This document shows positions 1-19,025 of a stretch of DNA of 64,000 bases, in pieces. The stretch's first letter is position 1; each line of letters begins with the position of its first letter. This DNA is from an uncultured Chloroflexia bacterium (GTDB taxonomy: Bacteria; Chloroflexota; Limnocylindria; Limnocylindrales; CSP1-4): the NCBI GenBank assembly GCA_963766685.1, contig CAVYBJ010000017.1, positions 248,107 through 312,106 of the forward strand, given 5' to 3'. A program made the translations under genes and the position numbers. The notes under the pieces are model-generated. The model was not told where the DNA came from. It was given only the letters and a program-made list of their open reading frames with translations, and made no database searches.

Positions 1-886
1 GGGCCAGGGTGGCACCGATCGAGAGCTGGGCCAGCACGCTGACCAGCGTGTTCTGGAACAGGGCTCGCTCCCGGCGGAGGAACTGCCAGCCCTCGCGCAG
101 CTCGACGGTGAAGGCAGCCACGGCCCCGGCGACCCGCGGTCCGAGCTCCCGCGCAGCGGGGGGCACGATGATGCCGGCCAGCAGCACGGCACTGACCAGG
201 TAGGTCACCGAATCGACCCAGAAGGCCAGTGCCAGGTTGGTGCCGAGGAAGGCCACGAAGACGCCTGCCAGCGGGTAGCCGGCGATGTCGGCCACGGTCT
301 CGCCCGTCCAGATGGCGCCATTCGCCGGGGTGAGGTCCTCGCGACGCACGATGCGCGGCAAGATGGCCGCCTTGGCCGGCCGGAAGAACAGGCTGACGGT
401 GGTGACCCCGAAGACGAGCGGGTAGACCAGCACCACGTCGGCCTCCACGAGGAACGGGATGACGAGCACGAGGCCCGCACGGAGCAGGTCGCTCACGATC
501 ATCACCATCTTCTGGTCCCAGCGGTCGACGAACGTGCCCGCCAGCGGGCCGAGCAGGAGATTGGGCAGGGTGGCGGCCAGGAAGACCAGGCCGGTCTGAA
601 GGGCTGAGCCGGTGATCGAGAGCACCATGACGCCCAGCGCGATCTGGTGCAGGCGATCGCCGAACAGGCTGATGGTGCCCGCCAGCCAGAAGGCACTGAA
701 GCGCGCGTCCCTGGCGAGGCCGACGTACGGGTGCCTCCGGATCCGCTCGCCCAGGCTCGGCGCGACCGTCGGCCGGGCGACCCCGACGGCGGGCGCGGCA
801 TGCCCAGGATGCTCGAGGACAGCGGCGGTGCCGCGCCCGGGCCCCATCCCGCTTCCGAGCACGACCGGGCGATCCATGGCCATCGT
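1..886 (-). CDS. MFS transporter; its 3' end lies beyond the window start
   Basis: Minus-strand translation gives a typical MFS N-terminus (RHPYVGLARDARFSAFWLAGTISLFGDRLHQIALGVMVLS) followed by multiple TM helices. The ORF is open to position 1, so it is absent from the ORF track. A candidate ATG start lies at about 886. Confidence 0.6.
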
Positions 887-1632
887 CTCGCCTTGGCGCC
901 GGTCGGCTGGGTCGGTCCTCGGCTGACCGCGCCACAGGGACACCACTCCGGTGTTGGGGTCCGAGGAGCCCTTGGCCACGGCCGAGAAGAGGAACCAGGC
1001 GATGCCGGCGGCCAGCAGCACGTCACCCAGGCTGATCACGTTGGACAGGGAGAGGATGACGATGGGCAGGATGTCCCCGAGCGGACCGCCCGCGAGCAGG
1101 AACTCCAGGTTGAGCTGGTCCGGCAGGGCGACGTGGAACGTGGGTGACAGGTCGGCGGCCGTGAGCCCGGCCACCTGGACAGCCGGCACGAAGACCGGCA
1201 TGTACCCGCCGTTGAGCAGGATGGCCAGGCCGTTGGCCGCGACGCCCACCATCGCCAGCAGGAGGCCCGACTGCGAGCGGTTGAGCCACAGGGCTGCCAC
1301 GAGCATCCCGAACGCCGCGGCGAAGAGCGGGGCGCGGAGTTGATCCGCGATGCCCACGTCCTGCTCGATCAGCCATTGCGTTCCGAAGCGCAGGGCCAGC
1401 GCCAGCAGGATCAGGACTCCGTAGCGCAGCTGGATCGACAGGAGGTTGCGAAGCCGGCCGCCCGCCAGCAGGCCGAGAACCATGCCGAGGATGCCGGCGA
1501 TCAGGAGCAACGGATCACCCTCGCGCCCGATGGCGTCGTCGTGGCTTCGGCCAGAGCGATCGCCGTGAGACCCCGGAGGCGCTGCCGTCCCGGCCGACGC
1601 TCCGGCCAGTCGGTCGCGGGCAGGCCCGCCAT
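887..1632 (-). CDS. Polytopic membrane protein of unknown function, in frame with the downstream MFS ORF with no stop between them
   Basis: Minus-strand translation from an ATG at 1632 is hydrophobic and helix-rich (PLLLIAGILGMVLGLLAGG...LAAGIAWFLFSAVAKG). I found no stop codon before the MFS N-terminus. Confidence 0.4.
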
Positions 1633-1651
1633 CTGCTCGGAGGCCCCGAGT

Positions 1652-3025
1652 CTAGGGTTCAGCTACGGCTGAGCTGGACGGCAACGCACCCCGCGCGCGG
1701 ACTGCGGCGACCTGGCCCAGCGTCGGGACTGCCGCGTGCGGACGCTCAGGCTCGCCTCGCTGCTGATCCTCGTCCGCCCGATCCAGCCCCACGATCCGGG
1801 TGCGACTGAAGGCCTCCACCACCTGCGGGTCGAACTGGATGCCTGCGTAGCGCTGAAGCTCTGCCAGTGCCTCGGCCGGCTTCAGCGGCACAGGGCGGTA
1901 GGGTCGCGACGCCGTCATGGCCTCGAACGCGTCGGCTACGTGGAGGACCCTGGCCAGGAGCGGGATCTCCTCGCCGATGAGCCGATCAGGATAGCCCGAC
2001 CCGTTGTACCACTCGTGGTGATGTCGGATCAGCGGCCGAACCTTGGAGAGTTGGTCGACGTCCCTGAGGATCTCCTCGCCCTTCGCGGGATGCTCGTTCA
2101 TGAGCATTCGCTCCTCGCGCGTCAGTCGCTCCGGCTTGAGCAGGACCGCATCCCGGATGCCGATCTTACCGATGTCATGGAGGAGACCAGCCCACTCGAG
2201 TTGCTCGAGTTCGGGCTCGCTGAGGTTCATCACCTGGCCGATCTCCACGGCGATACCCGAGACATGGTCCGAGTGTCGTCGGGTACTTGGATCGCGAGCG
2301 TCGATGGCCGAGGCCAGCGCGCGAACGGTCTGCGTGAACATGTTGCGGATGTCCACGACCGCCTTGTAGGCGGCACGCGTCGTGTACAACGGCAGCGCAA
2401 AGACGAACGCGACCAGCGGCCCGATGAACACGTACGCCAGTGCCATCAGCCAGGCAATCGGCGTCAGGCCGACCATGGTCAGGCCATATGACTTGATGTT
2501 GCCCTCCAGAACCGCGGTGAACGAACGGTCGTCCCGCAGGGCCACGGCGACTGCGGTGAGGGACTCGGTGACAAGGAAGAAGAGGCTGCCTCCTACGAGG
2601 ACGGCGGCCAGCATTTGTGGCGACGTGATGCCTGCGTCGAACCATTGGACGACCACGCCAGCGAGAACGGCCGGAAGGACCACAAACGTGTGGTTGTAGA
2701 GCACGCCCCACCACGGGACCTCGCGACTGAGTTCGCGGCGCTCAATCGTGCCGAAGACAGCGACGATAGCCGCTGCCGTTGGTCCACCGAGCACTGCCAC
2801 AGCCAAAATGGGCGCGAAGTACACGCTCACGAACGGGCCGCGGGGAACATGGACCGGTGCAGCTGTGGTCAGGATGGTCAAGCCAATCCAGAACACCAGC
2901 CCAGGGAACCCGCTCACGGGTCCCTCGATAGCCTCGTCTACGGGCCAGAGATATAGGCTCGCAAATAGGACAATTGCGGCCGTCAGCGCGACGGCCGCAA
3001 CTAGCACCCAGAGCGACCTGTTCAC
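1652..3025 (-). CDS. HD-GYP domain cyclic-di-GMP phosphodiesterase with an N-terminal multi-TM sensor domain
   Basis: HDIGK...HHEWYNGSGYP motifs of the HD-GYP family sit in the C-terminal half. The N-terminal roughly 230 aa are hydrophobic with about 7 helices. Confidence 0.85.
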   Translation of the reverse strand: MNRSLWVLVAAVALTAAIVLFASLYLWPVDEAIEGPVSGFPGLVFWIGLTILTTAAPVHVPRGPFVSVYFAPILAVAVLGGPTAAAIVAVFGTIERRELSREVPWWGVLYNHTFVVLPAVLAGVVVQWFDAGITSPQMLAAVLVGGSLFFLVTESLTAVAVALRDDRSFTAVLEGNIKSYGLTMVGLTPIAWLMALAYVFIGPLVAFVFALPLYTTRAAYKAVVDIRNMFTQTVRALASAIDARDPSTRRHSDHVSGIAVEIGQVMNLSEPELEQLEWAGLLHDIGKIGIRDAVLLKPERLTREERMLMNEHPAKGEEILRDVDQLSKVRPLIRHHHEWYNGSGYPDRLIGEEIPLLARVLHVADAFEAMTASRPYRPVPLKPAEALAELQRYAGIQFDPQVVEAFSRTRIVGLDRADEDQQRGEPERPHAAVPTLGQVAAVRARGALPSSSAVAEP

Positions 3026-3419
3026 TCGAGCCTGTTAGTCACTGCATCCATGGGGCCCCGAGTATGGGCGGGCTGTTCACCATGGCCCAGCGGACCTTGG
3101 TACTACTTGGTGACCGGGAGTTCAGAAGGGCCGAATCCCGGCGCTGCCTGTTGCCAGTACCCCCATGACGAGAGCACTGAGCAGGCCCAACCTGTAGACC
3201 CAGTCGCGCAACTTGTTCATGACAATTACCAGGGCTTGCTTCCGGCGTTCGGGTCCACCTGCTTCTCCTCTCTCGGCGGGACACCCAGTAGGCGTCCACT
3301 AGCGGCTGGCGGTCGGCTCAATTGCCGAACCCGAGGCGACCCTATGTGTGGGACCTGTACGTCCCCAATAAGTACTGGTGAGTACTAGCCCTGTGAAGCC
3401 GAAGGTACTCGCGACTGGG

Positions 3420-6400
3420 TCACGGGTCCTCGGCGACGAGGGTCTCGAACGGGGGCGCTCTGAGGCCCAACTCCCGTTTCATGAGATTGGCGTACTGACG
3501 GTAGTGATCCCCCGCTGCATCGACGGCACCCACGCGCGAAAGGGCCCTTATCAAGAAGGCGCGGAGGCTGAAGGCCAGCGGATCCAACTCAATCGCTCGC
3601 GCGAGCACGTCTATCGCAGTCTGAGTCCGCTCGGAGGCGAGCAGGGCTACTGCCGTGGCTTGAGAGAGGAGTAGGAATTGGGCATGGACCAGTGTTCGCC
3701 AATCCTCCGCCCAGTCCTCGTACTCGAACTCCGGCGCGAACCGTCCTCCGTATAGTCGCGCGATGCTGGGTCCAGCGCGCGCGACATCAACCGAGTTGAG
3801 CGCCTCGGTTGCCTGTCGTACGAAGGCGACGCTGTCGATCTGGACCAACTCCGGGTCTAGGTAGATCAGTTCGGAGTCGAGCGGGACGTAATCGGGGGTT
3901 GCATCTGGTCCAAGCCAAGGTGCGATGTTTCTGCGGACATAGTGCAGCGTCTGGTGCAGACTGTTGACCGCCGCGGCTGGCGATTGGTTGGGCCACAGTG
4001 CTTCCATGATTTGCTCTCTCGGGGCAGCCTGTTTCGGGCGCGTTACCAGGAAGAGCGGAAGAGCGAAGGCCTTACGCCGAGCGGCTGAAGCCGGCATCTC
4101 GATGCCTGACACTTCGTACGAGGTGCGACCGAGATCATGAATCCGGAGGGTCGGGCTGACCCTGCGAACCAGCGCTCTGCTGAGTGACGTCCGTCGCGCT
4201 GGCAGCGCTGTCTGTCGTTCCCAAGCGACCAGTGGTGACGCGTCCTCACGGGACCCAAAGTCGGAGAGGAGCCTGGCCGCCGCGGAAGCCACCACGCCGT
4301 TGCCTTCCTGCAGCTGACGGACGAGCACAGGCCTCCATCTCCCTGGGAAGAGGGCGACGGAGCGTCTCAAGGCAGGTGTAGTTGGGTCCAAGCAGGTGGA
4401 GTGACTTGCCAACGACGTCGGCCGACTCCAGCAGCGCGAGTGCCGAGATCTCCGAGCAGTCGTGAACCCACACGCGCCAAGCTCCGACTGTCCTGGCGTC
4501 GCTGAGGCTTCGATAATCCGAACGCGAGCCTCCCACCTCCACGCTTGCTGGGCATCAGATGCCCTGAGGGCATCCAGGATGTCCTGCGCCAAAGTCGGTC
4601 GACCGGTTAGGTACGACACGAGTGCCACCAAGAAGGCGCTGCGAGAGGCGCCGTCGAGCTCATCGAACCGCCCGACGTCCAGCTCGGACGTTCGTGCAAG
4701 GGCGTCATCAAAGCAACCTGCGGCGACCAGTCTGGACACCCGTGCGACGGCGGCTTGGTGCCGTGCCCCGACTTGGGCTGGCCCACTCGAAATGAGTCTG
4801 TGGAGCTTGTGCTCGAGGGACTCCGCACGCTGGAGATCGCCACAGATGGCCGACAGGTACGCACCGTCCGCAAGAACATCAGGATGTGCATTCGGTGCTG
4901 CCACCGCTTCCTGGGCAAGGGCGATCCCCTGCCCGTAGTCACCCGACTCCGCCAACGCGAGCGCTTGTGTGACCATCGCCGAAGGTCGGATGCTCGCGTC
5001 GACCGGCGAATTGCTCAGAGTCTGCTGCGCGCGCATGGAGAGCCCGACCGCCTCCCGATAGTCGCCCTGAGCCAGTGCAGCGGTCGCCGCGTTGTGGAGG
5101 GCGATTCCTGCGAAGTGAGTCAGCCCACCTCGAACCGAGTCCTCCGCAAGCAGGTCAAGGGACCTCCTCGCATCGCTTATCGATCCTCCTTGGCACGCAG
5201 TGCGCATCAGAGCCCACGCGTGGGCCAGTCGTTTGACGATGCTATCCGAGAGGGCGAGAGCCCCAAGTGCCTCAACCTCCTGCCATAGCAGCTCGCTGTG
5301 TCCTGCCATCTGATGGGCACTCGCTCGCGCGAGACTGAGCAGCCCGCGCTCGTCAGCGCTGAGGGCAGACTGGTCGATAGTGCTCAGAATGGCCAGTGCA
5401 TCGTTCGGGTCGACCCGCTGAAGTCAGGGCCCTCGCCTTGATCACTTCCACCGCGGGAGGGGGGAGGGTATCCGGCATGAGTTCGACGACTTCGACGGCC
5501 GCGCCCCACGCACCGGTCCCGAGTGCCTCGCTCGCGGCGGATCCCAGGACTCGCATGGCGTCTTGGGGCTGCTCTGCCAGTGCGTAGTGCTTGGCGGATG
5601 TCAGCCACGCCGAGGTTTCGGCCGCGCGTGCGATCGCACCGTGCATCGCCTTGATGCGCTCGGGCGGCGTCACGAGCACGAACTGATGCTCCAGGAACTC
5701 GCGGAACAGGGGATGCATGCGCACGCCGCCGCTCTCGACCTCCGGCTCACCCAGCAGGCCAAGTGAGCGTGCATCCTCCAGGTGAGTGGCCACCAGGTCC
5801 CGCCCGATGGGCTCGTCGGTCACCGACAGGCCGGCGGCGACGAGCTCCGGTGTGACCCGGTCGAGCAGGCATGCGTGAAGGAGGACGCGCTCCGTCAGGG
5901 GCGCCATCCTGGTCAGGACCTCCTCGGCAAGGAAGTCGTAGATGGGTCCCGTCGTCCCGCTCAATGCCTCGATGAAGGAGGCCACCTCGCCTGGCCGGCT
6001 GACGGCGATCGAGGCTGCCACGAGCTGAAGGCTGGCCGCCCAGCCTTGCGTCCGCTCGGCGACGACGTCGCAGGCCCGCTGGTCGAGCGGCCGCGAGTAC
6101 GCCGTCGCGAAGAGATCCTCGATCTCCGGCCGCGAGAACCGAAGGTCGTTGGTCGTCAGCTCCGACACGCGCCCCTGGGCGATCATCCGTCCGAGCGTGA
6201 GGTTCGGGCGGCCCCGTCCGGCGATCACGAACCGCATGCCAGCCGGTGCGCGCTCCAGCAGGCGACTCATGATCATGCGGACATCCGCGGAGTCGCTGAC
6301 CAGGTGGTAATCATCGAGGATGACCAGGATCTGACTGGTACCGACCGCGCCAAGGTCGGACAGGAACTGGGATAGGGCCACCTCCCTGGATGAACCCATG

Positions 6401-6852
6401 GATGCGACGTTGCGCAGGAGGGCCTCGGTAGGCCGGCCGAAGTCAGCGACCGCGCCGCGGATGCTGGCCACCAGGTAGCTGAGGAACGTGATCCAGTCGC
6501 CATCTGACCGCTCCAGGCGATACCAGACGCACGTCAGGTCCGAACGGCGGGCGAAGTCATTGAGCAGCGTCGACTTGCCGTAGCCAGCCTCCGCGTTGAT
6601 GAGGACCGCCCGCGCCTGCGTCTGGTGCTCAAGCCAGCCGATCAGCCGCGCGCGCGTCAGGACCAGGCGGCCTTCGACCGCAGGCGAGATCTTGCTGGCG
6701 ATGATGGCCAGGCCTGACGGATGGCCGACAGCGTCACCCGCGCGCTCCGTGGAGGCGGGCAGTTGCGGGGCCGTCTCCGGGCTGTTCTCAAGGGTGCTGT
6801 CTGGCGTCAGCGGCTGGCTCGGCATGGCCGCATCTTCAGGTGGCGTTCTCAT
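3420..6852 (-). CDS. Large STAND-type regulator: N-terminal P-loop NTPase (NB-ARC/MalT-like), a TPR-like region, then a C-terminal winged helix plus BTAD (SARP-type) domain. It is split by one frame break near 5355-5400
   Basis: The upstream ORF (5353..6852) has Walker A (AEAGYGKSTLL) and Walker B (ILVILDDYH) motifs. The downstream ORF (3420..5309) ends with ...LPLFLVTRPKQAAPREQIMEALWPNQSPAAAVNSLHQTLHYVRRNI, which is BTAD-like. The downstream frame stays open upstream of its ATG (..QRVDPNDALAILSTIDQSALSADERGLLSLARASAHQ-MAGH..) and overlaps the end of the upstream ORF. This is consistent with a single gene carrying a 1-nt indel. Confidence 0.7.
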
Positions 6853-6869
6853 CCGCGACTTAGGCGGGC

Positions 6870-6878
6870 TGTGGATAA
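6870..6878 (+). promoter_or_regulatory. Perfect DnaA box (TGTGGATAA, i.e. TTATCCACA)
   Basis: Exact 9-mer consensus in the intergenic region between the STAND regulator start and dodecin. Confidence 0.4.
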
Positions 6879-6894
6879 GTTGGCTGGTGTGGTG

Positions 6895-7101
6895 CTAGGT
6901 GCCCTCGTATTCGAAGTGGATCTTCAATTCCACCTCGAACTCCACGATCCTGCCTTGGTCCACCCGCGCGGTATGCCGCACCACCTCGACCTGGCGGATA
7001 TTGCGCACCGTGTGTGAGGCACGCGCCACGGCGTCCGCAGCGGCAGCGCTCCAGGAATCCGGACTGCTGCCGACCATCTCGCGGATGATGATGACTCCCA
7101 T
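6895..7101 (-). CDS. Dodecin (flavin-binding, about 68 aa)
   Basis: MGVIIIREMVGSSPDSWSAAAADAVARASHTVRNIRQVEVV...VEFEVELKIHFEYE matches the dodecin fold signature. The track ORF (204 aa) is over-extended at its 5' end. Confidence 0.7.
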   Translation of the reverse strand: MGVIIIREMVGSSPDSWSAAAADAVARASHTVRNIRQVEVVRHTARVDQGRIVEFEVELKIHFEYEGT

Positions 7102-7192
7102 GCTCTGCTCCTTCGCTTCGACCTCAGGTCCGGGACACCGAGTGTAGGCAGACGAGGTCGATGTTGGCGCCCGAGCGACGCCGACCGAAGGA

Positions 7193-8554
7193 TCACGCGT
7201 AGGCGCTGTCTGCGTAGTGCTCCTCTTCCGCATAGGAGACGAAGCGCGTCTGGCGCTTGCGGAACCACAACTTCGTCTCACCGGTCGGGCCGTTGCGATG
7301 CTTGGCAAGGCGCAGGTTGATGACTTCGCCGTCACGCTCTTGGTCATCCGCGCCGCGCTCCTTCTCTCGCCACAGGAACATGACCAGATCAGAGTCCTGC
7401 TCCAGGGCACCCGACTCCCGAAGGTCCGACAGGCGAGGCTCGCCCTTCTCGCGGGTCTCCGTCTGCCGCGAGAGCTGCGACAACGCCACGACGGGCACCT
7501 TGAGCTCACGGGCCAGCGCCTTCAGGCCCCGCGAGATGTCGCTGACCTCCTGGACGCGGTTCGCCTCGCGCGACTGGACGCTCGATTGCATGAGCTGCAG
7601 GTAGTCAACGATGATCATGTCCAAGCCGGATTCAGCCTGCAGGCGCCTCGCCTTGGTGCGGAGCTCCATGGTGCTGATGTTGGGCGTGTCGTCGATGAAG
7701 ATCGGCGCCTCCGCCAGCTTGTTCATCGCGGGCGCCAGCCGCGCGAAGTCCATCTCTTCGAGGAAGCCCGTCCTCAGGCGCTGCGAATCGATGTTGGCGA
7801 CCGAGGAGAGCAGCCGAAGCACCAGCTGCTCCTTGCTCATCTCAAGGCTGAAGACGCCGACGACCTTGCCTTCGTTGACGGCGGCGTGTTCGGCGAAATT
7901 GAGGGCCAGGCTGGTCTTGCCGATGGATGGTCGAGCGGCCACCAGCACCAGGTCGGACTTCTGGAGCCCGGTGGTCATCGTGTCCAGGTCCGCGAAACCG
8001 GTGCGGATGCCGCTGATCTCACCCTTGTGCTGGTGGAGGTAGTCGAGCCGATCGTAGGCGTCGTGGAGCAGCGTCTTGAGAGGTGCGAATCCAGACTGCA
8101 CACGTTTCTCGGAGACGGCGAAGAGCTCTGACTCAGCGCGGTCGATGACCTCGCCGACGTCCCCTTCTTCCTGGTAGCCCAACCCGGCGATGCGCCCAGC
8201 CGCGCTGATGAGGTTCCGAAGGACGCTCTTGCGCTCGACGATCCGCGCGTAGTGGACCGCGTTGACCGCTGTCGGAGTGAGGTTGATCAGGCTCGTCAGA
8301 TAGGCAGTCCCGCCGACCTCGTCGAGGTGTCCCTGTCTCTCCAGCGTCTCGCTGACGGTGACGATGTCCACGGGCTCCCGACGCTCGTAGAGATCCAGCA
8401 CGGCGGCGTAGACGGTGCCGTGGTGCTGACGGTAGAAGTCGCCCGGCTGAAGCAGCTCGGCGACCTCGATGACCGCGTCCCGGTCGATGAGAAGCGCGCC
8501 CAGGACCGATTGCTCGGCCTCGATGGACTGGGGTGGCAGACGATCGATGGACAC
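7193..8554 (-). CDS. dnaB: Replicative DNA helicase DnaB
   Basis: N-terminal PPQSIEAEQSVLGALL, Walker A GARPSIGKTSLALN, and a RecA-like C-terminal domain; 453 aa. Confidence 0.9.
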   Translation of the reverse strand: MSIDRLPPQSIEAEQSVLGALLIDRDAVIEVAELLQPGDFYRQHHGTVYAAVLDLYERREPVDIVTVSETLERQGHLDEVGGTAYLTSLINLTPTAVNAVHYARIVERKSVLRNLISAAGRIAGLGYQEEGDVGEVIDRAESELFAVSEKRVQSGFAPLKTLLHDAYDRLDYLHQHKGEISGIRTGFADLDTMTTGLQKSDLVLVAARPSIGKTSLALNFAEHAAVNEGKVVGVFSLEMSKEQLVLRLLSSVANIDSQRLRTGFLEEMDFARLAPAMNKLAEAPIFIDDTPNISTMELRTKARRLQAESGLDMIIVDYLQLMQSSVQSREANRVQEVSDISRGLKALARELKVPVVALSQLSRQTETREKGEPRLSDLRESGALEQDSDLVMFLWREKERGADDQERDGEVINLRLAKHRNGPTGETKLWFRKRQTRFVSYAEEEHYADSAYA

Positions 8555-8704
8555 GCTCTTCTCCGGGTGACAGCAGTCGTTCAGATGGGCATCACGTCAT
8601 GCCCTCGCCATGTTCGAGGCAGTAGGCGGGCACGCGCAAGCGTCATCTCCACGTTCGCTCGTGGTCATGTCCTCAGGTCATGCGCAGCGACTCTCCACGA
8701 GCCA

Positions 8705-8713
8705 TGTGGATAA
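8705..8713 (+). promoter_or_regulatory. Perfect DnaA box (TGTGGATAA)
   Basis: Exact consensus 9-mer in the dnaB upstream / lexA downstream intergenic region. It has the same orientation as the box at 6870. Confidence 0.4.
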
Positions 8714-8749
8714 GTCGTGGAAAGACCCTTGGGCTAGCCTCCCGAGTGA

Positions 8750-9394
8750 CTAGTCCACCCTCCGGATGACCCCTACCAGCTTGCCCTGGATGCGGACCGC
8801 ATCGTAGTACTGGGGCTCATAACGATCGTTGGCGGGCTGGAGGCGGACCCGGTTCCGTTCCTTGAAGAACCGCTTCAGGGTGACGGCATTCTCATCGACC
8901 TGCGCGACCACGATGTCCCCATCCTGCGCCGTTTGCTGCTCGCGGATGACGACCAGGTCTCCGTCCATGATGTGGGCATCGACCATCGAGTCACCACGCA
9001 CGCGCAGGACATACGTCGCCGCGCTCGTGTTGATCATGTCCGGGATCGAGATCGTCTCGCTGGCATCCTGGTAGGCCTCGATCGGACCACCCGCTGCGAT
9101 CTCGCCGACGACCGGGAAGCGATGGTCATCAGACGCGGCCCTCGCCAGCAGGTCGCTCCCGCCATGGCTGAGCAGTGCGGCGGGCGTCAACCGGAGTGCG
9201 CGCGACTGGGTGGCGTCCCGCTCCAGGAGACCCTCCCGCTCCAGGGCCGAGAGATGGTGGTGGACGGCCGACGTGGAGGCCAAGCCGACCGCAGCAGCGA
9301 TCTCGCGGACGGACGGGGGATAGCCGCTGCGGCGCACGCTGGCGGCGATGTACTCGATGATCCGCTGTCTTCGCAACGCGTCGTGCTTGGTCAC
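8750..9394 (-). CDS. lexA: LexA repressor
   Basis: N-terminal winged HTH and a C-terminal S24 peptidase domain (VLRVRGDSMVDAHIMDGDLVVI, Ser/Lys dyad context); 214 aa. Confidence 0.9.
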   Translation of the reverse strand: MTKHDALRRQRIIEYIAASVRRSGYPPSVREIAAAVGLASTSAVHHHLSALEREGLLERDATQSRALRLTPAALLSHGGSDLLARAASDDHRFPVVGEIAAGGPIEAYQDASETISIPDMINTSAATYVLRVRGDSMVDAHIMDGDLVVIREQQTAQDGDIVVAQVDENAVTLKRFFKERNRVRLQPANDRYEPQYYDAVRIQGKLVGVIRRVD

Positions 9395-9418
9395 GAGGCC
9401 TCCTTTGGGCCATCGTAC

Positions 9419-9432
9419 CGAACACTTGTTCG
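9419..9432 (+). promoter_or_regulatory. LexA (SOS) box CGAACACTTGTTCG, Cheo/Gram-positive type
   Basis: Perfect CGAAC-N4-GTTCG palindrome 25 bp upstream of the lexA start, in the divergent lexA/DUF1232 intergenic region. Confidence 0.75.
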
Positions 9433-9539
9433 ATTGTCAAGGGAGGTGGCGGCTCGGCGGGGATGGGAACGGGTCGGCCGCATCGACGTGACGCGCGCTG
9501 GATGCCGTGTGTGGCGCGGGTGCTAGACTCGCGCTCCCG

Positions 9540-10007
9540 ATGGCCCTGCGAACCACCTTCCGGCTGGGGCTGACCGCGCTCAGCTTCTGGCCATTCCTAC
9601 CCCTTCTGCAGCGGACGCCGATCTACGGACGGCTTCTCGTCGAGTTGGCGCTCGACGGCCGGGTACCCTGGTCGCGGAAGGCCATGCTCGGTTTCGCAGG
9701 CGCCTACATCGTGGCCCCCATCGACGTCATCCCGGACTGGATCCCGGTCATCAGCAGGTTCGATGACGTGATGGTCACTATCATCGCCTTGGACCTCTTC
9801 CTGGAGGGGGTCCCGCGTGAGGTGATGATCGAGAAGTTGTACGCGCTCGGCATCGATGGTCGCGAGCTCGAACGGGACATGGAGGCGGCGCGGCGTCTGC
9901 TCCCCATGCCGGTCCGGTCGCTCGCCCGCCGCCTGCCGACCCTTATGGAGACCGGCGCCAGGATCCTGCGCGTGGAGCTGGCAGCGCGCGGCATCGTCGA
10001 GCAGTAG
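9540..10007 (+). CDS. DUF1232 (YkvA-like) membrane protein, divergent from lexA
   Basis: The motif ...YIVAPIDVIPDWIPVISRFDDVMVTIIALDLFL is characteristic of DUF1232. Start taken at MALRTTF. Confidence 0.6.
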   Translation: MALRTTFRLGLTALSFWPFLPLLQRTPIYGRLLVELALDGRVPWSRKAMLGFAGAYIVAPIDVIPDWIPVISRFDDVMVTIIALDLFLEGVPREVMIEKLYALGIDGRELERDMEAARRLLPMPVRSLARRLPTLMETGARILRVELAARGIVEQ

Positions 10008-10032
10008 TGAGACCTAGGAGGCTTCTGAGACC

Positions 10033-10479
10033 GTGAAGGTGATCCTGACAGCGGACGTCGAGTCGGTGGGCAAGAGCGGTGAGCTCAAGGACGTGACCAA
10101 CGGCTACGCCCGCAATTACCTCATCCCGCGCAACCTGGCCGTGCCGGCGTCGGGTGGGACCTTCCGCGCCTGGCAGCACGACATCGCCAGCCGCGAAGAA
10201 CAGCGCAAGCGCGAGCGCGAGGAGGCCGAGATCGCCGCCCAGCGCATCAGCAGCACGACGCTCACGATGGGCGTGAAGGTCGGAGAGGGCGGCAAGCTTT
10301 ACGGGTCCATCACGGCCAAGGACATCGCGGATGCGCTGGCTCGCCGGGGCATCGAGATCGATCGCCATCGCATCGACCTCGAGGAGCCCCTCCGACACCT
10401 CGGGACCTACAAGGTCGCCATCCGTGTCGCACCCGAGATGGTCTCGGAGGTCACCATCGCGGTCGAACCCAAGGGCTAG
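10033..10479 (+). CDS. rplI: 50S ribosomal protein L9
   Basis: MKVILTADVESVGKSGELKDVTNGYARNYLIPRNLAV is the canonical L9 N-terminus; 148 aa. Confidence 0.9.
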   Translation: MKVILTADVESVGKSGELKDVTNGYARNYLIPRNLAVPASGGTFRAWQHDIASREEQRKREREEAEIAAQRISSTTLTMGVKVGEGGKLYGSITAKDIADALARRGIEIDRHRIDLEEPLRHLGTYKVAIRVAPEMVSEVTIAVEPKG

Positions 10480-10522
10480 CCAGACGCGCGGTGGGGCTTG
10501 CCCGCCGCGTCATCATTGCGGC

Positions 10523-11773
10523 GTGAGGCTTGCCACCACGCTGCACGTCGACCTGGACGCCTTCTTCGCGTCCGTCGAGCAGCGGGACCGCCCTGAGCTC
10601 CGCGGTCGACCCGTGGTCGTGGGTGGTGGTGGCCCCACCGACCGTGGCGTCGTCAGCGCCGCATCCTACGAGGCGCGGCGCTTCGGGATCCACTCGGCGA
10701 TGCCGTTGCGCACCGCCGCAGCCCTGTGTCCCACGGTGGTCTTCCTGCCTGTCGATGGCCGCCGGTACGCGGCGGTCAGCCGAGAGGTCATGCGCATCCT
10801 GCAGCGCTTCACGCCGCTGGTGGAGCCCATCTCCATCGACGAGGCCTTTCTGGACGTCGCCGGCTCAGAGCGGCTTCACGGCAGCCCGGTCGATATCGCT
10901 CGCTCGATCAAGGCTGCCATCCGCGACGAGCTGCAACTGACCGCCTCGGTCGGGGTCGCGACCAACAAGCTGGTGGCCAAGGTCGCCTCGGACCTGCAGA
11001 AGCCGGACGGCCTGGTGGTCGTCGAGCCGGGCCACGAGGCCGCATTCCTGGCGCCGCTTCCCGTCGGCCGGCTGTGGGGTGTCGGTGCGCGTACGGCCGA
11101 CGTGCTGGCGGAGTACGGCGTCCGGACCATCGGCGACCTGGCCGCCCTCCCGGACGACCTCCTGGCGCGCCGACTCGGCAAGCAGGGTCCCGTCCTGGCC
11201 GCCCGGGCCAGGGGTATCGACCCGTCCGAGGTCTCCGATGCGGAGGCTGCGCGGTCCATCAGCCACGAACACACCTTCGACATCGACACGTCCGATCGCG
11301 AGGCCCTGGAGCGCACGTTGCTGGCGCTCTGCGACGGCGTCGCAGCACGGCTGCGGGCCGGCCACGTCATGGCGCACACCGTGACCGTCAAGGTGCGCGA
11401 TGCATCCTTCACCACGGCGACCCGCCAGAGGACACTGGCCGCGCCGACCGACGAGACCGAGGTCATCTTCCGTGCTGCCCTCGAATTGGCCCGTCCTCGA
11501 TTCAGGGGTGTCAAGGTGAGGTTGCTGGGCGTGTCGGCTTCCCACCTCGACGCAGGCGAGCAGCTCTCGCTCTTCCGTGCCTCGGACGACCGCCACCGGC
11601 GCGCGACCCAGGCCGCGGACGAGATCCGCCGCCGGTTCGGCTCCAGGGCCATCCAGCGCGCCCGGCTCATCGGATCGGGCGTCCCGGAACCATTCGAGCG
11701 CGACCCGCTGCATCATCCCGACGCCGGCGCTGGCAAGTCTGCACGCTCGCGCGGTCCGAGCTCCGAGCCCTGA
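10523..11773 (+). CDS. dinB: DNA polymerase IV (Y-family translesion polymerase)
   Basis: LHVDLDAFFASVEQRDRPELRGRPVVVGG...SIDEAFLDV and palm/finger/little-finger motifs. A GTG start near 10523 is likely; the track ORF is over-extended at its 5' end. Confidence 0.85.
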   Translation: MRLATTLHVDLDAFFASVEQRDRPELRGRPVVVGGGGPTDRGVVSAASYEARRFGIHSAMPLRTAAALCPTVVFLPVDGRRYAAVSREVMRILQRFTPLVEPISIDEAFLDVAGSERLHGSPVDIARSIKAAIRDELQLTASVGVATNKLVAKVASDLQKPDGLVVVEPGHEAAFLAPLPVGRLWGVGARTADVLAEYGVRTIGDLAALPDDLLARRLGKQGPVLAARARGIDPSEVSDAEAARSISHEHTFDIDTSDREALERTLLALCDGVAARLRAGHVMAHTVTVKVRDASFTTATRQRTLAAPTDETEVIFRAALELARPRFRGVKVRLLGVSASHLDAGEQLSLFRASDDRHRRATQAADEIRRRFGSRAIQRARLIGSGVPEPFERDPLHHPDAGAGKSARSRGPSSEP

Positions 11774-11855
11774 GCCGAGCTCAGGGCGACGCGTGACAGG
11801 CTAGCTGGCACGGCTCATCGGCAGGCTTCGACGATGAGCGGTACGAGTTGACATT

Positions 11856-11869
11856 CGAACACTCGTTCT
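11856..11869 (+). promoter_or_regulatory. LexA-like box CGAACACTCGTTCT
   Basis: GAAC-N4-GTTC core with one mismatch to the lexA box. It lies between dinB and the 93-aa ORF. Confidence 0.55.
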
Positions 11870-11881
11870 GTATCGTGAGAT

Positions 11882-11895
11882 AGAACAGATGTTCG
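11882..11895 (+). promoter_or_regulatory. Second LexA-like box AGAACAGATGTTCG
   Basis: GAAC-N4-GTTC core 26 bp after the first box and about 60 bp upstream of the 11957 ORF. Confidence 0.55.
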
Positions 11896-11956
11896 TTGCA
11901 GCCGATGCGTGCCCCCTCGGCCTCCGCCGCTCGACCCGCATTGAGGAGGCGATGTC

Positions 11957-12238
11957 ATGATCAACTTCGAGGGTCTGTCGCTCGGCACGGCGGTCGCGGT
12001 CGATGGTCGTACCGGACGCCCGCGGGAGATCCGGGCCGGTGGCCAACGGCTGGCCATCACGGCCCTGGAGGCCGTTCGGGACGAGACCTCGGCCTATCCC
12101 GCGGACACCGGGCCGCGAACGGTCTTCGTGGTCCGCTCGGATGCGCGGCGCTATCGACTCGTGCACCTGCTCGGTGAGCGGCGCTGGACGATCGAGGAGT
12201 TGTCGTCTCAGGGCACCGCCGCCACGCGTGCCGCCTGA
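11957..12238 (+). CDS. Uncharacterised 93-aa protein downstream of the twin SOS boxes
   Basis: ATG ORF, MINFEGLSLGTAVAVDGRTGRPREIRAGGQRLAITALEAV.... I recognise no family. Confidence 0.45.
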   Translation: MINFEGLSLGTAVAVDGRTGRPREIRAGGQRLAITALEAVRDETSAYPADTGPRTVFVVRSDARRYRLVHLLGERRWTIEELSSQGTAATRAA

Positions 12239-12377
12239 AGCAGGACCGCGGTCATCGCCAAGCCCATCCTGACGACCGGGACGTCGGTGGCCCCCGGCCA
12301 CCATGCGAGAATGCGCCGCATGACTGAAGAGCGCAGGGGCTTCCGCGGATCAGACCCTCGAGGAGTTCAGCACCGCC

Positions 12378-12983
12378 TTGGCATCCGGGGAGCCGGTTCC
12401 GGGAGGCGGGAGCGCCGCCGCCGTCGCGGGCGCGCTCGCAGCCAGCCTGTGCAGCATGGTCGTCCGCCTCTCGCTCGATCGACCAGCCCTGCAGGCGCAC
12501 GCCAGCCTCCACGTAGAGGGGCTCGCCATCTCGGATGCGGCCCGCTCGCGCTTCCTCGATCTCGCGGATGAGGACGCCGCAGCCTACGCGGCCTATCGTG
12601 CGGCACGCCGCATGCCACACGACACGGACGAGCAGTCGGCGGCTCGCGATGCCGCCACTCGCCAGGCTGCCCTGGTGTCCGCTGAGGTACCCCTCAGAGT
12701 CGTTGATGCCTGCCGCCAGCAGGTGGCGATCGCGGAGCGTCTCGTGGGCCGGACGAACCGAAACGCTGCCAGCGATCTGGATGTGGCGGCTCTGCTGCTG
12801 GATGCGTCCGCGAGAGCTGCCGCCGCCAACGTGCTCGTCAATCTTCCTGCCATCGGTGATGAGGGCCTCGCATCCGGGATGCGCCTCCGCGTGGAGGAAG
12901 ACCTCCAGCAGGTCAGGGAGACAGCCTCCCGCGTCAGGGGTCTGGTCGCGACGGGCGGGCAGCGACCAGTGGAACCCGCATGA
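12378..12983 (+). CDS. Formiminotransferase-cyclodeaminase C-terminal-like (cyclodeaminase / methenyl-THF cyclohydrolase family) protein
   Basis: PVPGGGSAAAVAGALAASLCSMV motif of the FTCD_C family. TTG start; the frame is open from 12313. The stop overlaps the folD ATG (ATGA). Confidence 0.7.
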   Translation: MASGEPVPGGGSAAAVAGALAASLCSMVVRLSLDRPALQAHASLHVEGLAISDAARSRFLDLADEDAAAYAAYRAARRMPHDTDEQSAARDAATRQAALVSAEVPLRVVDACRQQVAIAERLVGRTNRNAASDLDVAALLLDASARAAAANVLVNLPAIGDEGLASGMRLRVEEDLQQVRETASRVRGLVATGGQRPVEPA

Positions 12984-13879
12984 GCCAGGTCGGGGGGCCC
13001 GGCAGCGCAGCCACGCTGCTTGACGGGCGTTCCATGGCGCAGGCGATGCTCGCGGAGACCCGGGAGGAGATCGCCGCGCTGACCTTGCGGCGCGGCTCGG
13101 TCCCGGAGATCCGCGTGCTGCTGGTGGGAGACGATGCAGCCTCGGCGGTGTACGCCAGGCGCATCCTTCGCTCGGCGGAGGCCGTGGGCTCGACCGGCCG
13201 CCTGGTCACGCTCCCCGGCGACTCGGAGGTGGCGTCCGTGCGCGCAGCTCTGGCTGAGCTGAGCAGTGACCCTGCCGTCGCCGGGATCATCATGCAGTTG
13301 CCGCTCCCTCCGGGACTGGAACTGGCGAGCATCATCGACGCGCTCGACCCTCGCAAGGATCTTGACGGCATCCACCCCTTCAATGCCGGGCTGGTGTCGC
13401 GAGGGGCGGGTGGCTTCGCGCCGTCCTGCGCAGAAGCCGCCATCGAGATCCTGAAACGATCAGGGATCGCCATGGCGGGTCGTCCCGCCGTGGTCGTCGG
13501 TCGCAGCAACGTCGTGGGCCGTCCGGCACAGCTGCTCCTCATCGCGGAGGACGCCACGGTCACGGTCTGCCACCGCAAGACCACGGACCTCGACGCGCAG
13601 ATGCGGCGAGCGGAGATCGTCGTCGTGGCTGCCGGCGCGGCCGGGCTCGTCAGGGGTGGGGCCATCCAGCCCGGTGCCACGGTGATCGACTGCGGGATCA
13701 ACGTCCTCGAGGACGGCTCGATCGTGGGTGACGTCGACCTCGCTTCGGTGCTGCCCGTGGCCGGCGCCATCACCCCGGTGCCGGGCGGTGTCGGTCCGGT
13801 CACCAACGCGGTGCTCATGCGCCATCTTGCGCGCGCGGCGCGCATGCGACTGGCTGACGGGCCGAACGCGGCTGACTGA
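12980..13879 (+). CDS. folD: Bifunctional methylene-THF dehydrogenase / methenyl-THF cyclohydrolase
   Basis: LLDGRSMAQAMLAET..., IIMQLPLP, VVVGRSNVVGRPAQLLL and PVPGGVGPVT motifs. Confidence 0.9.
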   Translation: MSQVGGPGSAATLLDGRSMAQAMLAETREEIAALTLRRGSVPEIRVLLVGDDAASAVYARRILRSAEAVGSTGRLVTLPGDSEVASVRAALAELSSDPAVAGIIMQLPLPPGLELASIIDALDPRKDLDGIHPFNAGLVSRGAGGFAPSCAEAAIEILKRSGIAMAGRPAVVVGRSNVVGRPAQLLLIAEDATVTVCHRKTTDLDAQMRRAEIVVVAAGAAGLVRGGAIQPGATVIDCGINVLEDGSIVGDVDLASVLPVAGAITPVPGGVGPVTNAVLMRHLARAARMRLADGPNAAD

Positions 13880-13920
13880 GCGACACGGACATGGGTGCTG
13901 CGGGCATGGCATCCTGACGC

Positions 13921-15617
13921 GCATGCCCACCAGCCTTCAGATCGCCCAGGACGCGGCGCTGCGTCCGATCACCGACATCGCGTCCGAACTCGGACTCCTG
14001 CCCGACGAGATCGAGCCCTACGGTCGCTACAAGGCCAAGATCCGCCTCGAGGTGCTCGATCGCCTGGCCGATCAGCCCGATGGCCGGGAGATCATCGTCA
14101 CGGCCATCACGCCCACGCCGCTCGGGGAAGGCAAGACCACCACCACCATCGGCCTTGCCCAGGGGCTCAACCGCCTCGGCGTTCGCGCGGCGGTGGCGAT
14201 CCGGCAGCCCTCCCTTGGGCCGGTCTTCGGCATCAAGGGTGGCGGCGCCGGTGGCGGCTACAGCCAGGTGCTGCCGATGGAGGACATCAACCTCCATTTC
14301 ACGGGCGACATCCACGCCGTCACGGCAGCTCACGACCTTGGAGCAGCCTTCCTCGACAACCACCTGCTGCGCGGCAACCAGTTCGGCATCGATGTCTCCA
14401 CCGTCCGCTGGCCGCGGGTGCTGGACGTGAACGACCGCATCCTGCGACGCGTGCGCCTGGGCCTGGGTGAGGCAGAAGAGCTCCAGCACGAGGGCGAGTT
14501 CCACATCACGGCCGCATCCGAGGTGATGGCCGTGCTGGCCCTCTCCACGGACCTCCAGGACCTGCGCCGTCGCATCGGCCGCATCATCGTGGCCGAGACC
14601 AGCGATGGCCGCGCGGTCACGATGGAGGACCTCAAGGCGGCCGGTGCCATGACCGTCCTGCTGCGCGACGCCATCAAGCCCAACCTGGTGCAGACAGTCG
14701 AGGGTGGGCCGGCCTTCGTGCACGCCGGGCCGTTCGCCAACATCGCCCATGGCAACTCGTCCGTCGTGGCCGACCGCGTGGCTCTCAAGCTGAACGAGGC
14801 GGTCTGCACGGAGGGCGGCTTCGCGTCCGACATGGGCCTCCAGAAGTTCATGGACATCAAGTGCCGCCTGTCCGGGCTGCGCCCATCCGCAGCCGTCATC
14901 GTGGCCACCATCCGCGCTCTCAAGATGCACGGCGGCGTCGGCAAGGTCGTGGCCGGTCAGCCACTCGACCCTGAGTTGCTGAAGGAGGACCCGGACGCGG
15001 TACGCCGTGGGGCTGAGAACCTTGCCCAGCACATCGCCATCGTGGCCAACTACGCCGTGCCGGCCGTCGTCGCCATCAACACGTTCCCGACCGACCACGC
15101 CTCGGAGTTCCAGGCGGCTCGCGAGGCGGCGCTGGCCGCGGGCGCGGAGGACGTCGTGGTCTCGCGGCACTTCGCCGATGGGGGAGAGGGCGCGCTGGAC
15201 CTTGCCCGCGCGGTCTGGGCCGCCGCCCAGAAGGGCGCCCCGGACTTCCGGCTCCTTTCCCGGGAGGGCGCCTCGCTGCGCGAGCAGATCGAAGACATCG
15301 CGACGCGCGTGTACGGCGCAGACGGTGTGGACCTCGCGCCGCAGGCGGAGGCCTCTCTCGATGCCATCGAGCGCCTGGGCTACGGCGGCGTGCCGATCTG
15401 CATGGCCAAGACGCAGTCCTCGCTGAGCCATGACCCGGCGCTCAAGGGACGCCCGCGCGGCTGGCGGCTGCCGATCCGGGACGCTCGCCTCTTCGCCGGG
15501 GCGGGCTTCGTGACGGCCTACTGCGGGAACATGATGACGATGCCTGGGCTTCCCACCCACCCGGCTGGGGAGGACGTGGACATCGACGCCGATGGACGGA
15601 TCGTCGGTCTCTTCTAG
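13921..15617 (+). CDS. fhs: Formate--tetrahydrofolate ligase
   Basis: TPTPLGEGKTTTTIGLAQGL P-loop and full-length FTHFS homology from MPTSLQIAQDAALRPI. The track ORF starts too early. Confidence 0.9.
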
Positions 15618-15683
15618 GCTCGGTCCCGGGCCCGCCCGGACGAGGCCGTCACCCGCGCGGCCGTTGACCTCCCGCGGTCGCGC

Positions 15684-15909
15684 TCACGTGTGCGAGGCGA
15701 CGTAGAGAGCGAGGGCAGTGACCAGGCCCACGGCACCTCCGGCGACCGCATATGCCCAGGCGACGAGGTCCGGCGGCCCCAGCGGCTCAGCCGCATCCCG
15801 GTGGCCGTGCGCCACCGGCCATGCCCGGGTCGTGGTCAACGGCAGCCTGATGGTCGTCGTGGGCAAGGGCGGCGTCGACGGAGCCGGCGTGGGGATCGGT
15901 GACGGACAT
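15684..15909 (-). CDS. Small His-rich protein with a C-terminal TM helix (about 75 aa; one frame break near 15795)
   Basis: MSVTDPHAGSVDAALAHDDHQAAVDHDPGMAGGA then, after a frame break, HGHRDAAEPLGPPDLVAWAYAVAGGAVGLVTALALYVASHT. It sits immediately downstream of the ABC substrate-binding gene on the same strand. Confidence 0.3.
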
Positions 15910-15929
15910 GGGTGCAGTATCTGACATCG

Positions 15930-17000
15930 TCAGGGCAGCAGCTGGTCCGTGACGAGCTCGTCGACGGGCGGCGGGGTCGAGACGACGGTGTCCGGCAGGG
16001 CTGCCACGGTGCTCACGGCGGAGGCCCAGGTCTCCAGGTCGATGCTGCCCAGGCCGTGGAGCTTCGTGTCGTCGCTCTGCCAAGCGTCGATGGTGGCCTC
16101 CAGGATCGCCAGCTGGGTGGCCGGATCGGCCGCCAGCTCCGGCACGCGAGCGAAGGTGGCGTCGAGCCCTCGTTGCGGGTCGGCGGCGATGTCCTCCATC
16201 GCTCGCAAGGTGGCCTTGGTGAACGCCCGCAATGCGTCGCCCTTGGTTTCCAGCGTGCTCGTCCCCACGACGAGACCAGGCCCCGGAAGTGGGGCCACGT
16301 CATCGACACGCATGACGCGGACGTCCAGCCCCTCGCGAGCCAGTTGGACCGGCTCGTTGTTGAGGTAGCCGATGGCCGCGTCGACCTGGCCCTCCGCGAC
16401 GGCCACGCCGTGCCCGAAGTCCGGATAGGACACGATCTCCACGTCGTCCGGGGTCAGGCCTCCGGATGCCAGCAGCGCCTGGAGCGCGATCCAGGACGAT
16501 CCGAAGCGGCCGGGGATGCCGATCGACTTCCCCGCCAGGTCCGAGACCTCGTTGATGCCGCTCTCCGCGAGAGAGAAGAGGACGTTCGGGAAGCGCGCGA
16601 AGATGGTGGCACCGTAGCGGACCGGGATGCCCTGGCTCACCGCCGGGATGAGGCTTGTCCCGTCGGCCAGGCCGACGTCCACGGCGCCCTGCCCGATGAG
16701 CGTGATGAGCTCCGGGTCCACCTTGTTCTGGAACGTCACGTCCAGCCCCGCGTCGGCGTAGTAGCCGGCCTCATCGGCCAGGTAGAACTGCGCGAACTGA
16801 ACGCTGGGGATGTAGCCCAGGCCCACCGTCAGGCTCGTCGGCGCCGGAGAGGGGCTGGCCTCCTGAGCCAGCACCGGGACGCTGGCTGGGCTGCCCGCCA
16901 GAAGGCCCGCCAGCAGCAGGCCAGCCAGCAGGGTGGAGCGTGAGCGATGGGCGTGCCACGGCCGTGCCCCTGGGGTCGGTCGGTCCTGGGATCTCGACAT
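15930..17000 (-). CDS. ABC transporter substrate-binding protein, NitT/TauT (NMT1/SsuA-like) family
   Basis: A signal peptide followed by an SsuA/THI5-like periplasmic domain. Confidence 0.8.
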   Translation of the reverse strand: MSRSQDRPTPGARPWHAHRSRSTLLAGLLLAGLLAGSPASVPVLAQEASPSPAPTSLTVGLGYIPSVQFAQFYLADEAGYYADAGLDVTFQNKVDPELITLIGQGAVDVGLADGTSLIPAVSQGIPVRYGATIFARFPNVLFSLAESGINEVSDLAGKSIGIPGRFGSSWIALQALLASGGLTPDDVEIVSYPDFGHGVAVAEGQVDAAIGYLNNEPVQLAREGLDVRVMRVDDVAPLPGPGLVVGTSTLETKGDALRAFTKATLRAMEDIAADPQRGLDATFARVPELAADPATQLAILEATIDAWQSDDTKLHGLGSIDLETWASAVSTVAALPDTVVSTPPPVDELVTDQLLP

Positions 17001-18762: not shown

Positions 18763-19025
18763 CCGGACTGTGACCGTCGGCTCCCTGCGAAGGATCGACC
18801 GCCGTGCTGAGCGGCGGCTCGTGGGCTGGCAGCGAACCATCCTGGCCCGTCTGCCGACCACCGGTAGGGGATTGCACCCGACCCCGAAGGTGAGGCGTGC
18901 TATGGCGAGTTGTGACTCGACTATAGCAGTGGGTCCCGGCAGTCCCGGTGAGGCGATGGTCACCATGCGGAGGGCCACATGGTTCGCGTGCACGTCTTGG
19001 GCTTCTGGGGCATCCTTGCCGCGGA

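Follow-up and report, generated by a model that had tools for sequence, protein, structure and literature searches.

A probable MalT-type STAND regulator with a C-terminal SARP module, conserved in the Limnocylindria (Chloroflexota)

In MalT and the large ATP-binding LuxR-family (LAL) regulators the usual order is a nucleotide-binding oligomerization domain (NOD), then a sensor and a C-terminal DNA-binding domain, and those described so far have LuxR-type outputs. The SARP modules described so far are at the N-terminus of actinobacterial regulators, most of which belong to antibiotic gene clusters, and the module is N-terminal in all of the small, medium, large and SARP-LAL classes covered in reviews and in the papers on AfsR (including PMC10936776). 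Here, we examine a gene on the minus strand (6852..3420) of a 64-kb stretch of contig CAVYBJ010000017.1, hereafter the window, from a member of the Limnocylindria, a class that is abundant but uncultured in soil and freshwater. The gene probably encodes a single STAND-class, ATP-dependent transcription factor of approximately 1140 aa, which consists of a MalT-type NOD, an arm and sensor, and a C-terminal SARP module, and the four frame breaks found in the window copy are most likely errors.

As listed, the region holds two ATG-started minus-strand open reading frames (ORFs), ORF1 (5353-6852, 499 aa) and ORF2 (3420-5309, 629 aa). A scan of the GTDB species representatives recovered 526 relatives of the regulator, and the loci of the best 80 were retrieved; the denominators used below vary with the comparison, namely 81 loci for frame-broken copies, 82 for a DnaA-box-like sequence and 78 for features of the downstream spacer. 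A profile was built from an alignment of 93 full-length homologues (alignment A2), and this alignment was also the input for an AlphaFold2 (AF2) model, which is of an intact homologue (P0001, 74 % identical) and not of the window copy itself. Folds were compared using Foldseek (TMt values are given), and the Pfam cut-offs are 26.2 bits for Trans_reg_C and 22.1 bits for BTAD, the bacterial transcriptional activation domain.

Domain architecture of the regulator

By sequence comparison, the ATPase motifs are intact, the N-terminal two thirds of the protein are homologous to MalT and its C-terminal 210 aa to the AfsR SARP domain. The NOD, comprising a P-loop nucleotide-binding domain (NBD), a helical domain (HD) and a winged-helix domain (WHD), spans approximately aa 47-440 (5535..6714, minus strand). 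ORF1 matches the NCBIfam MalT model PRK04841 with an E value of 1.3e-52 over aa 50-433, and AAA_22/AAA_16 weakly; the PRK04841 match scores 179 bits against a cut-off of 537 bits and covers positions 2-373 alone of a 903-position equivalog model. The NOD motifs are a Walker A, AEAGYGKSTLL (6562-6594), a Walker B, LVILDDYHLV (6298-6327), and an MHD-like motif, RMHPLF (5692-5721), and in the 93 homologues the G-K, the DD and the HP of these motifs, respectively, are invariant or nearly so. When the family profile was compared to solved structures, positions 37-447 matched the NOD of Escherichia coli MalT (8bob) with an E value of 2.6e-68, and the fold of the model also matched this structure (TMt 0.73).

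The arm and a helical-repeat sensor of the TPR/SUPR type follow at approximately aa 440-880 (4210..5534), the half of the gene that is divergent between strains (see below). A TPR region between the NTPase and the DNA-binding domain had been proposed in a preliminary description of this DNA and, though weak by Pfam in the window copy, it is backed by the family profile, in which positions 571-671 match TPR proteins (E ~1e-9), and by the fold. In the model, residues 440-880 are all-helical hairpins with pLDDT >90, and the matches include MalT domain III (1hz4, TMt 0.56) and a MalT-like STAND-TPR protein (6mfv, TMt 0.44).

The SARP module occupies the last ~250 residues. ORF2 matches Trans_reg_C (23 bits, aa 412-464), which is below the cut-off, and then BTAD (47.2 bits, E 3.8e-12, aa 497-618), which is above it, at the extreme C-terminus; the BTAD begins approximately 30 aa after the winged helix-turn-helix (wHTH), as it also does in the homologues. 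The former match, together with the AfsR profile match and the AF2 topology, predicts an OmpR-type winged-helix DNA-binding domain at 3825..4157, and the BTAD (3456..3821, also matched to AfsR by fold) lies directly after it, both on the minus strand. Positions 916-1125 of the family profile correspond to residues 50-258 of AfsR (8hvr, 8k60 and 8jke; E ~6e-9), and the fold match to the AfsR SARP domain (8k60_J, TMt 0.68) extends over 250 columns that span the wHTH and the BTAD. In the recognition helix NSLHQTLHYVRRNI (3924-3965; NSLHQTL..RR), the residues N-S-L-Q-R-R are invariant or nearly so across the family, and a conserved DNA site is therefore predicted. The AF2 model (pLDDT 89.3, pTM 0.73) has the same order throughout, with an alpha/beta NBD, helical and winged-helix domains, approximately 20 helical hairpins, a beta-sheet/three-helix/wing domain and a terminal helical bundle. 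Hence, the placement of a P-loop NTPase at the N-terminus and of the wHTH and BTAD at the extreme C-terminus, as in the preliminary description, was borne out by profiles, solved structures and the AF2 model.

However, the description had gone further and read this order as an inverted SARP. This would make the protein an AfsR-type large SARP of the NB-ARC clade with circularly permuted domains, and the homology of the C-terminal 210 aa and the combination of a NOD with TPR-like repeats in both proteins could be accommodated by such an origin. Yet NB-ARC gave no match in the window ORFs even at E 0.1, the NOD matches MalT (E 1e-52 to 1e-68) and, in the homologues, carries a precomputed WHD_MalT domain (PF25873), the best fold matches are the MalT NOD, MalT domain III and MalT-like 6mfv, and the best-scoring stretch of the family profile against each AfsR chain is confined to the SARP module. 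We therefore regard a permuted AfsR as extremely improbable. The simplest description is a swap of output domains, in which a SARP module took the place of the LuxR HTH of a MalT/LAL protein. STAND proteins are known to swap their effectors, so the architecture is moderately interesting rather than startling. Though the order differs from that of the SARP classes in the literature searched, and to that extent is unusual as had been claimed, it is not rare and is the normal one for MalT/LAL regulators.

Comparison with individual systems leads to the same placement. The regulator shares with E. coli MalT (8bob, 1hz4) and the LALs an N-terminal NBD-HD-WHD, an arm, a SUPR/TPR-like sensor and a C-terminal DNA-binding output, but in place of a LuxR/GerE HTH (GerE/LuxR HTH profiles had no match in the window ORFs or in four homologues) its output is an OmpR-type wHTH followed by a BTAD, and the host belongs to the Chloroflexota. 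With AfsR and the large SARPs of Streptomyces (8hvr, 8k60, 8jke) it shares an OmpR-type domain directly before a BTAD, a STAND NOD and TPR-like repeats, and ATP-dependent release of the SARP module is likely to be common to both (PMC10936776). It differs from them in the C-terminal position of the SARP module, in a NOD of the MalT clade rather than NB-ARC, and in lying outside both a biosynthetic gene cluster and the Actinomycetota, with no AfsK-type kinase context seen. In the SARP-LALs (PimR, FilR and SanG) a SARP module is likewise joined to a LAL-like ATPase half, but there it is N-terminal, whereas in the regulator it comes last, separated from the ATPase by a full TPR-like sensor.

By homology with MalT and AfsR (PMC10936776), binding of an inducer to the sensor would release autoinhibition by the arm and sensor. 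ATP binding and oligomerization driven by the NOD would follow. The C-terminal SARP modules would then be arranged next to one another on tandem repeats in the DNA, and the BTAD and wHTH would there contact RNA polymerase and activate transcription. The family indicates that the SARP activation module can also act as the C-terminal output of a MalT-type switch, and it offers a second, independent context for how a NOD and sensor gate a SARP domain, a question that is still open for AfsR.

One gene with four frame breaks

Homology indicates that the two ORFs are one gene, because full-length single-ORF homologues of 1100-1190 aa exist. A protein search using a provisional repair returned >100 proteins of ~1100-1170 aa (93-100 % query coverage, 29-74 % identity), whose precomputed domains are AAA_22, WHD_MalT, Trans_reg_C and BTAD, and their alignment crosses the ORF1/ORF2 junction without a gap (...ARALTSxGRPxDALA...). 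Removal of four inserted bases gives an uninterrupted protein of 1133 aa from the ATG at 6825 or 1142 aa from the ATG at 6852, in line with the ~1,140 aa originally estimated. The upstream start adds MRTPPEDAA, an extension that is kept at the protein level in other clades, and a relative in a JGI metagenome with a short-read-style assembly name was called as 1142 aa.

A single frame break had been proposed, but alignment with the closest relatives revealed four 1-bp insertions. Repair of one frameshift left a stretch of nonsense, and the homologue alignment then exposed three further frame errors. Break 1, one extra base in GGTCGACCCGAACGAT (5405..5410, minus strand), divides the gene into the two ORFs. 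Breaks 2-4 are single extra bases at ~4498/4499, 4472 and 4391 (4391..4499, minus strand), located by three-frame translation and by protein and DNA alignments. Since these three insertions total +3, ORF2 stays open across them, and ~36 codons (4389-4499) are misframed. ORF2 residues ~270-307 ('TPGQSELGACGFTTARRSRHSRCWSRPTSLASHSTCL') are consequently nonsense. The conserved sequence is found in the two remaining frames, and it is over these frames of window 4389-4499 that the correct peptide, '...RQDSRSLARWVHDCSEISALALLESADVVGKSLHLLDP...', is distributed. A relative collinear with window 1-16833 at 91 % nucleotide identity (L001) was compared pairwise, and four others (L084-L087, 93-95 % identical) were placed in a five-way alignment with the window; all four insertions are absent from L084, L085, L086 and L087, and the alignment with L001 places the same four.

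A two-protein system, in which a stand-alone STAND ATPase and a TPR-wHTH-BTAD regulator would be encoded by separate genes, has in its favour that both ORFs start with an ATG and that the ATG of ORF2 (5309) comes soon after the stop of ORF1. It is scarcely credible given the single-ORF homologues, the gapless alignment over the junction and a break consisting of one base private to the window. Furthermore, the last 18 residues of ORF1 and the stretch before the ORF2 ATG are out-of-frame readings of conserved sequence, and ORF2 itself contains the three further frame errors.

The remaining issue is whether the insertions are consensus errors of a long-read metagenome assembly, in which case the gene is probably intact in the organism, or real mutations in a recently inactivated pseudogene, the regulator having been lost in this strain. 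We favour consensus errors with good confidence, as the insertions are private to the window, the relatives have insertions of their own, and essential genes are broken in sister metagenome-assembled genomes (MAGs). Each of the long-read relatives L084-L087 has different private 1-bp insertions in the regulator gene, with one further insertion common to three contigs. Frame-broken copies of the regulator were found at 10 of 81 loci, all in Flye-named contigs of Microflora Danica (MFD) MAGs, and none of the copies at the 81 loci that come from assemblies with short-read-style contig names is broken. In some of the same MFD MAGs, dnaB, which is essential, lexA and rplI are likewise frame-broken. 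The MFD MAGs are Nanopore-only Flye assemblies with one round of Medaka polishing (PMC12313526). In addition, break 1 lies ~15-20 nt inside the point (5425) at which the sequence of a co-occurring strain ceases to align, and L087, an independent assembly, has its own private insertion ~15 nt beyond break 1, which puts both ~15-30 nt inside this junction, the pattern expected of errors from mixed-strain polishing.

The ratio of nonsynonymous to synonymous substitution (dN/dS) relative to L001, calculated after repair, also bears on this. The values of 0.157 for the whole gene and 0.106 for the wHTH and BTAD, which lie downstream of all four breaks, indicate that purifying selection has acted on the gene over practically the whole divergence (compare 0.025 for DnaB and 0.05 for HD-GYP), and the gene has been kept at the same position across the 80 related loci. 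A dN/dS of this kind does record long-term constraint, which is compatible with very recent inactivation, and the insertions lie outside long homopolymers; the breaks in the relatives also fall mostly in genes that look dispensable (PolIV, HD-GYP and this regulator). Nevertheless, a pseudogene appears unlikely, though it is the likeliest of the alternatives.

Several points weigh against the reading of this gene as an intact STAND regulator with a SARP output. In the 16.8 kb shared with L001, there are four frameshifts, within 3.4 kb, in the regulator and none in the neighbouring dnaB, lexA, dodecin and HD-GYP genes, a clustering that would also fit recent, real inactivation, and the sequencing technology of the window is inferred from its relatives. 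Trans_reg_C is below the cut-off in every copy scanned (18-25 bits in the homologues), and the inducer, DNA site, regulon and oligomeric state of the family are all inferred. For annotation, the lesson is that a single gene should be assumed for the two ORFs here and for the many truncated copies in Nanopore-only MAGs.

At least one other gene in the window is frame-split, which also speaks for consensus errors, and genes of the relatives are affected too. A gene at 42449-43889 (minus strand) that encodes an SRPBCC (Polyketide_cyc2) and NAD(P)-binding protein is split: ORF 43044-43889 covers positions 1-68 of the NAD_binding_10 profile and ORF 42449-43420, which overlaps it, covers positions 78-147, so that a frameshift is placed near 43120-43190. 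A 607-aa ORF at 40138-41961 (minus strand) has a Glycos_transf_1 match limited to profile positions 95-160, near its C-terminus, and is possibly another frame-disrupted gene, for a glycosyltransferase; a candidate upstream ORF (40395-41006) had no Pfam match. A Y-family DNA polymerase gene (IMS/IMS_C, 10331-11773, plus strand) is intact in the window, but its counterpart in L001 (5036-6350) is broken by three 1-bp insertions, and several further MFD relatives have broken copies as well.

Distribution and genomic context

The best 80 of the 526 GTDB relatives are all in MAGs labelled Chloroflexota, Chloroflexia or Limnocylindrales, except for one labelled Sideroxydans. When the C-terminal 260 aa were searched against 1.84 billion representatives, 186 clusters (50 % identity) were obtained at E <=1e-30, and in all of the best 150 of the 186 the match reaches the C-terminus of the protein, as in the window. 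Same-architecture homologues are thus readily found, and hundreds of them are full-length. Nearly all 80 loci have the gene order L9 - DUF1232 - LexA - DnaB - dodecin - regulator - spacer of ~360-660 nt - MASE9/HD-GYP, even at a regulator identity of 31 %, and the neighbours were confirmed by Pfam. The gene for dodecin, which is flavin-binding, is directly upstream of the regulator at 6895-7101. The regulator is a core, position-fixed gene of the Limnocylindria and not an island gene. An anti-phage (Avs-like) defence STAND was considered and ruled out, as no PADLOC defence model matched and the chromosomal position is fixed in almost all 80 loci.

The family is a conserved but unstudied regulator of soil Chloroflexota. 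Members carry automatic NCBI and JGI names such as 'BTAD domain-containing putative transcriptional regulator' and 'MalT / SARP family', and no description of the NOD-sensor-SARP order was found in the full-text literature searched, which is weak evidence as coverage of subscription journals was thin. With the regulator, two mini-ORFs, an HD-GYP gene and, in many relatives, a cyclic di-GMP (c-di-GMP) riboswitch, the locus is a tractable one for finding the inducer and the target.

Allelic cassette, mini-ORFs and candidate DNA sites

Pairs of closely related regulators differ sharply in their C-terminal parts. P0001 and P0011, and likewise P0002 and P0006, are ~100 % identical over aa 1-450 and 24-54 % identical beyond. 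At the DNA level, L082 and L083 match the window at ~91 % on both flanks but are unalignable between 5425 and 2548, an interval (2548-5425) that holds the sensor, the wHTH, the BTAD, the mini-ORF spacer and ~160 codons of the MASE9 domain of HD-GYP. Both allele types of this cassette are present in the same metagenome samples, and the exchange partners are otherwise ~91 % identical strains from the same samples.

Two conserved tandem mini-ORFs (3122..3258, minus strand) lie between the regulator and HD-GYP, ~160 nt downstream of the regulator, and the pair is found at the same position in 70 of 78 loci. The first, sORF1 (MDPNAGSKPW, 3226-3258), is preceded by a Shine-Dalgarno sequence, GGAGAA, and sORF2 (MNKLRDWVYRLGLLSALVMGVLATGSAGIRPF, 3122-3220) begins five nt after it. 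Across the loci, sORF1 is ~10 aa of the form M-x-P-[NE]-x-x-x-K-[PGAS]-[WF], and sORF2 is ~30 aa with a basic N-terminus, a hydrophobic core and an end that reads AG[SG]AG[IV]RP[FIL] or AGGASL[RK]GF; both peptides terminate in a basic residue, Gly or Pro, and an aromatic or hydrophobic residue. Conservative substitutions are made via different codons (TGG/TTC, AAG/CGA), an argument that selection acts on the peptides. The sORF2 product resembles either a propeptide of the signal-peptide type or a membrane peptide with one helix, and the variants from the window and one distant relative matched no Pfam family.

The alike endings of the two peptides, and the exchange of sensor, output, mini-ORFs and MASE9 codons together, could be explained if the regulator were the receptor of a strain-specific signalling module resembling a quorum-sensing pherotype, its TPR sensor binding a mini-ORF product, but this is improbable. 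Similarly, it is improbable that one strain-specific signalling cassette is made up of the regulator, the MASE9/HD-GYP enzyme and the mini-ORF peptides, and any link of the mini-ORFs to the regulator would be hypothetical. If it were true, c-di-GMP turnover would be coupled to a peptide signal by a STAND ATPase with a SARP output. The RRNPP systems (NprR, PlcR and Rgg/SHP) resemble this arrangement, by analogy alone, in having a TPR-type sensor and a DNA-binding domain beside a small propeptide-like ORF and in being a divergent receptor-plus-peptide cassette exchanged between close strains, and the regulator has a weak TPR profile match to NprR (E 1e-4). However, the regulator has a STAND ATPase, and secretion of the mini-ORF products or their binding by the sensor is hypothetical; no membership of RRNPP is claimed.

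In one more distant relative, a c-di-GMP-II riboswitch (RF01786; L063:11345-11428, 65.6 bits against a gathering score of 53.5) is followed by a terminator-like stem and lies upstream of sORF1-sORF2-HD-GYP. The core signature of this riboswitch is present in 36 of 78 loci, from the more distant clades and not the clade of the window, and Rfam found no family at E <=1 in the window spacer (2800-3600).

SARP binding sites consist of direct repeats, 11 or 22 bp apart, of which the 3' one is 8 bp from the -10 element. Near the regulator gene, none of the direct repeats with a spacing of 11 or 22 bp was convincing. The most conserved DNA element nearby is GTAC-N4-7-GTAC, found in 60 of 78 spacers where ~2 would be expected; in the window it is AGTACTCACCAGTACT (AGTACT-N4-AGTACT, 3371-3386), which is unique in the 64 kb. 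This was rejected as a SARP operator, as GTAC is self-complementary and the flanks covary, forming a stem of ~11 bp (CTTCC.../...GGAAG vs CTTAC.../...GTAAG). Because the flanks covary, the element is hairpin-like, and a conserved leader-RNA hairpin is more probable than a site bound by protein; in the riboswitch-bearing relatives the element is just upstream of the aptamer.

On the other side of the gene, a DnaA-box-like nonamer, TTATCCACA (6870..6878, minus strand), is 18 nt upstream of the ATG at 6852 and is followed by TAAG. Of 82 loci, 32 have the exact nonamer at the same position, where 0.007 would be expected, and 42 have a relaxed form of it. The nonamer may be part of the promoter or an operator of the regulator gene. 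A second perfect copy of TTATCCACA is at 8705-8713 (minus strand), between lexA and dnaB and upstream of dnaB.

Elsewhere in the window, an FMN riboswitch (RF00050, 74.9 bits) was detected at 18747-18895 (minus strand). A gene at 34593-35510 (minus strand) encodes a regulator with a MerR-HTH and a B12-binding domain, the domain pair of CarH-type regulators, and a 1225-aa ORF at 27932-31609 (plus strand) includes six PASTA repeats.

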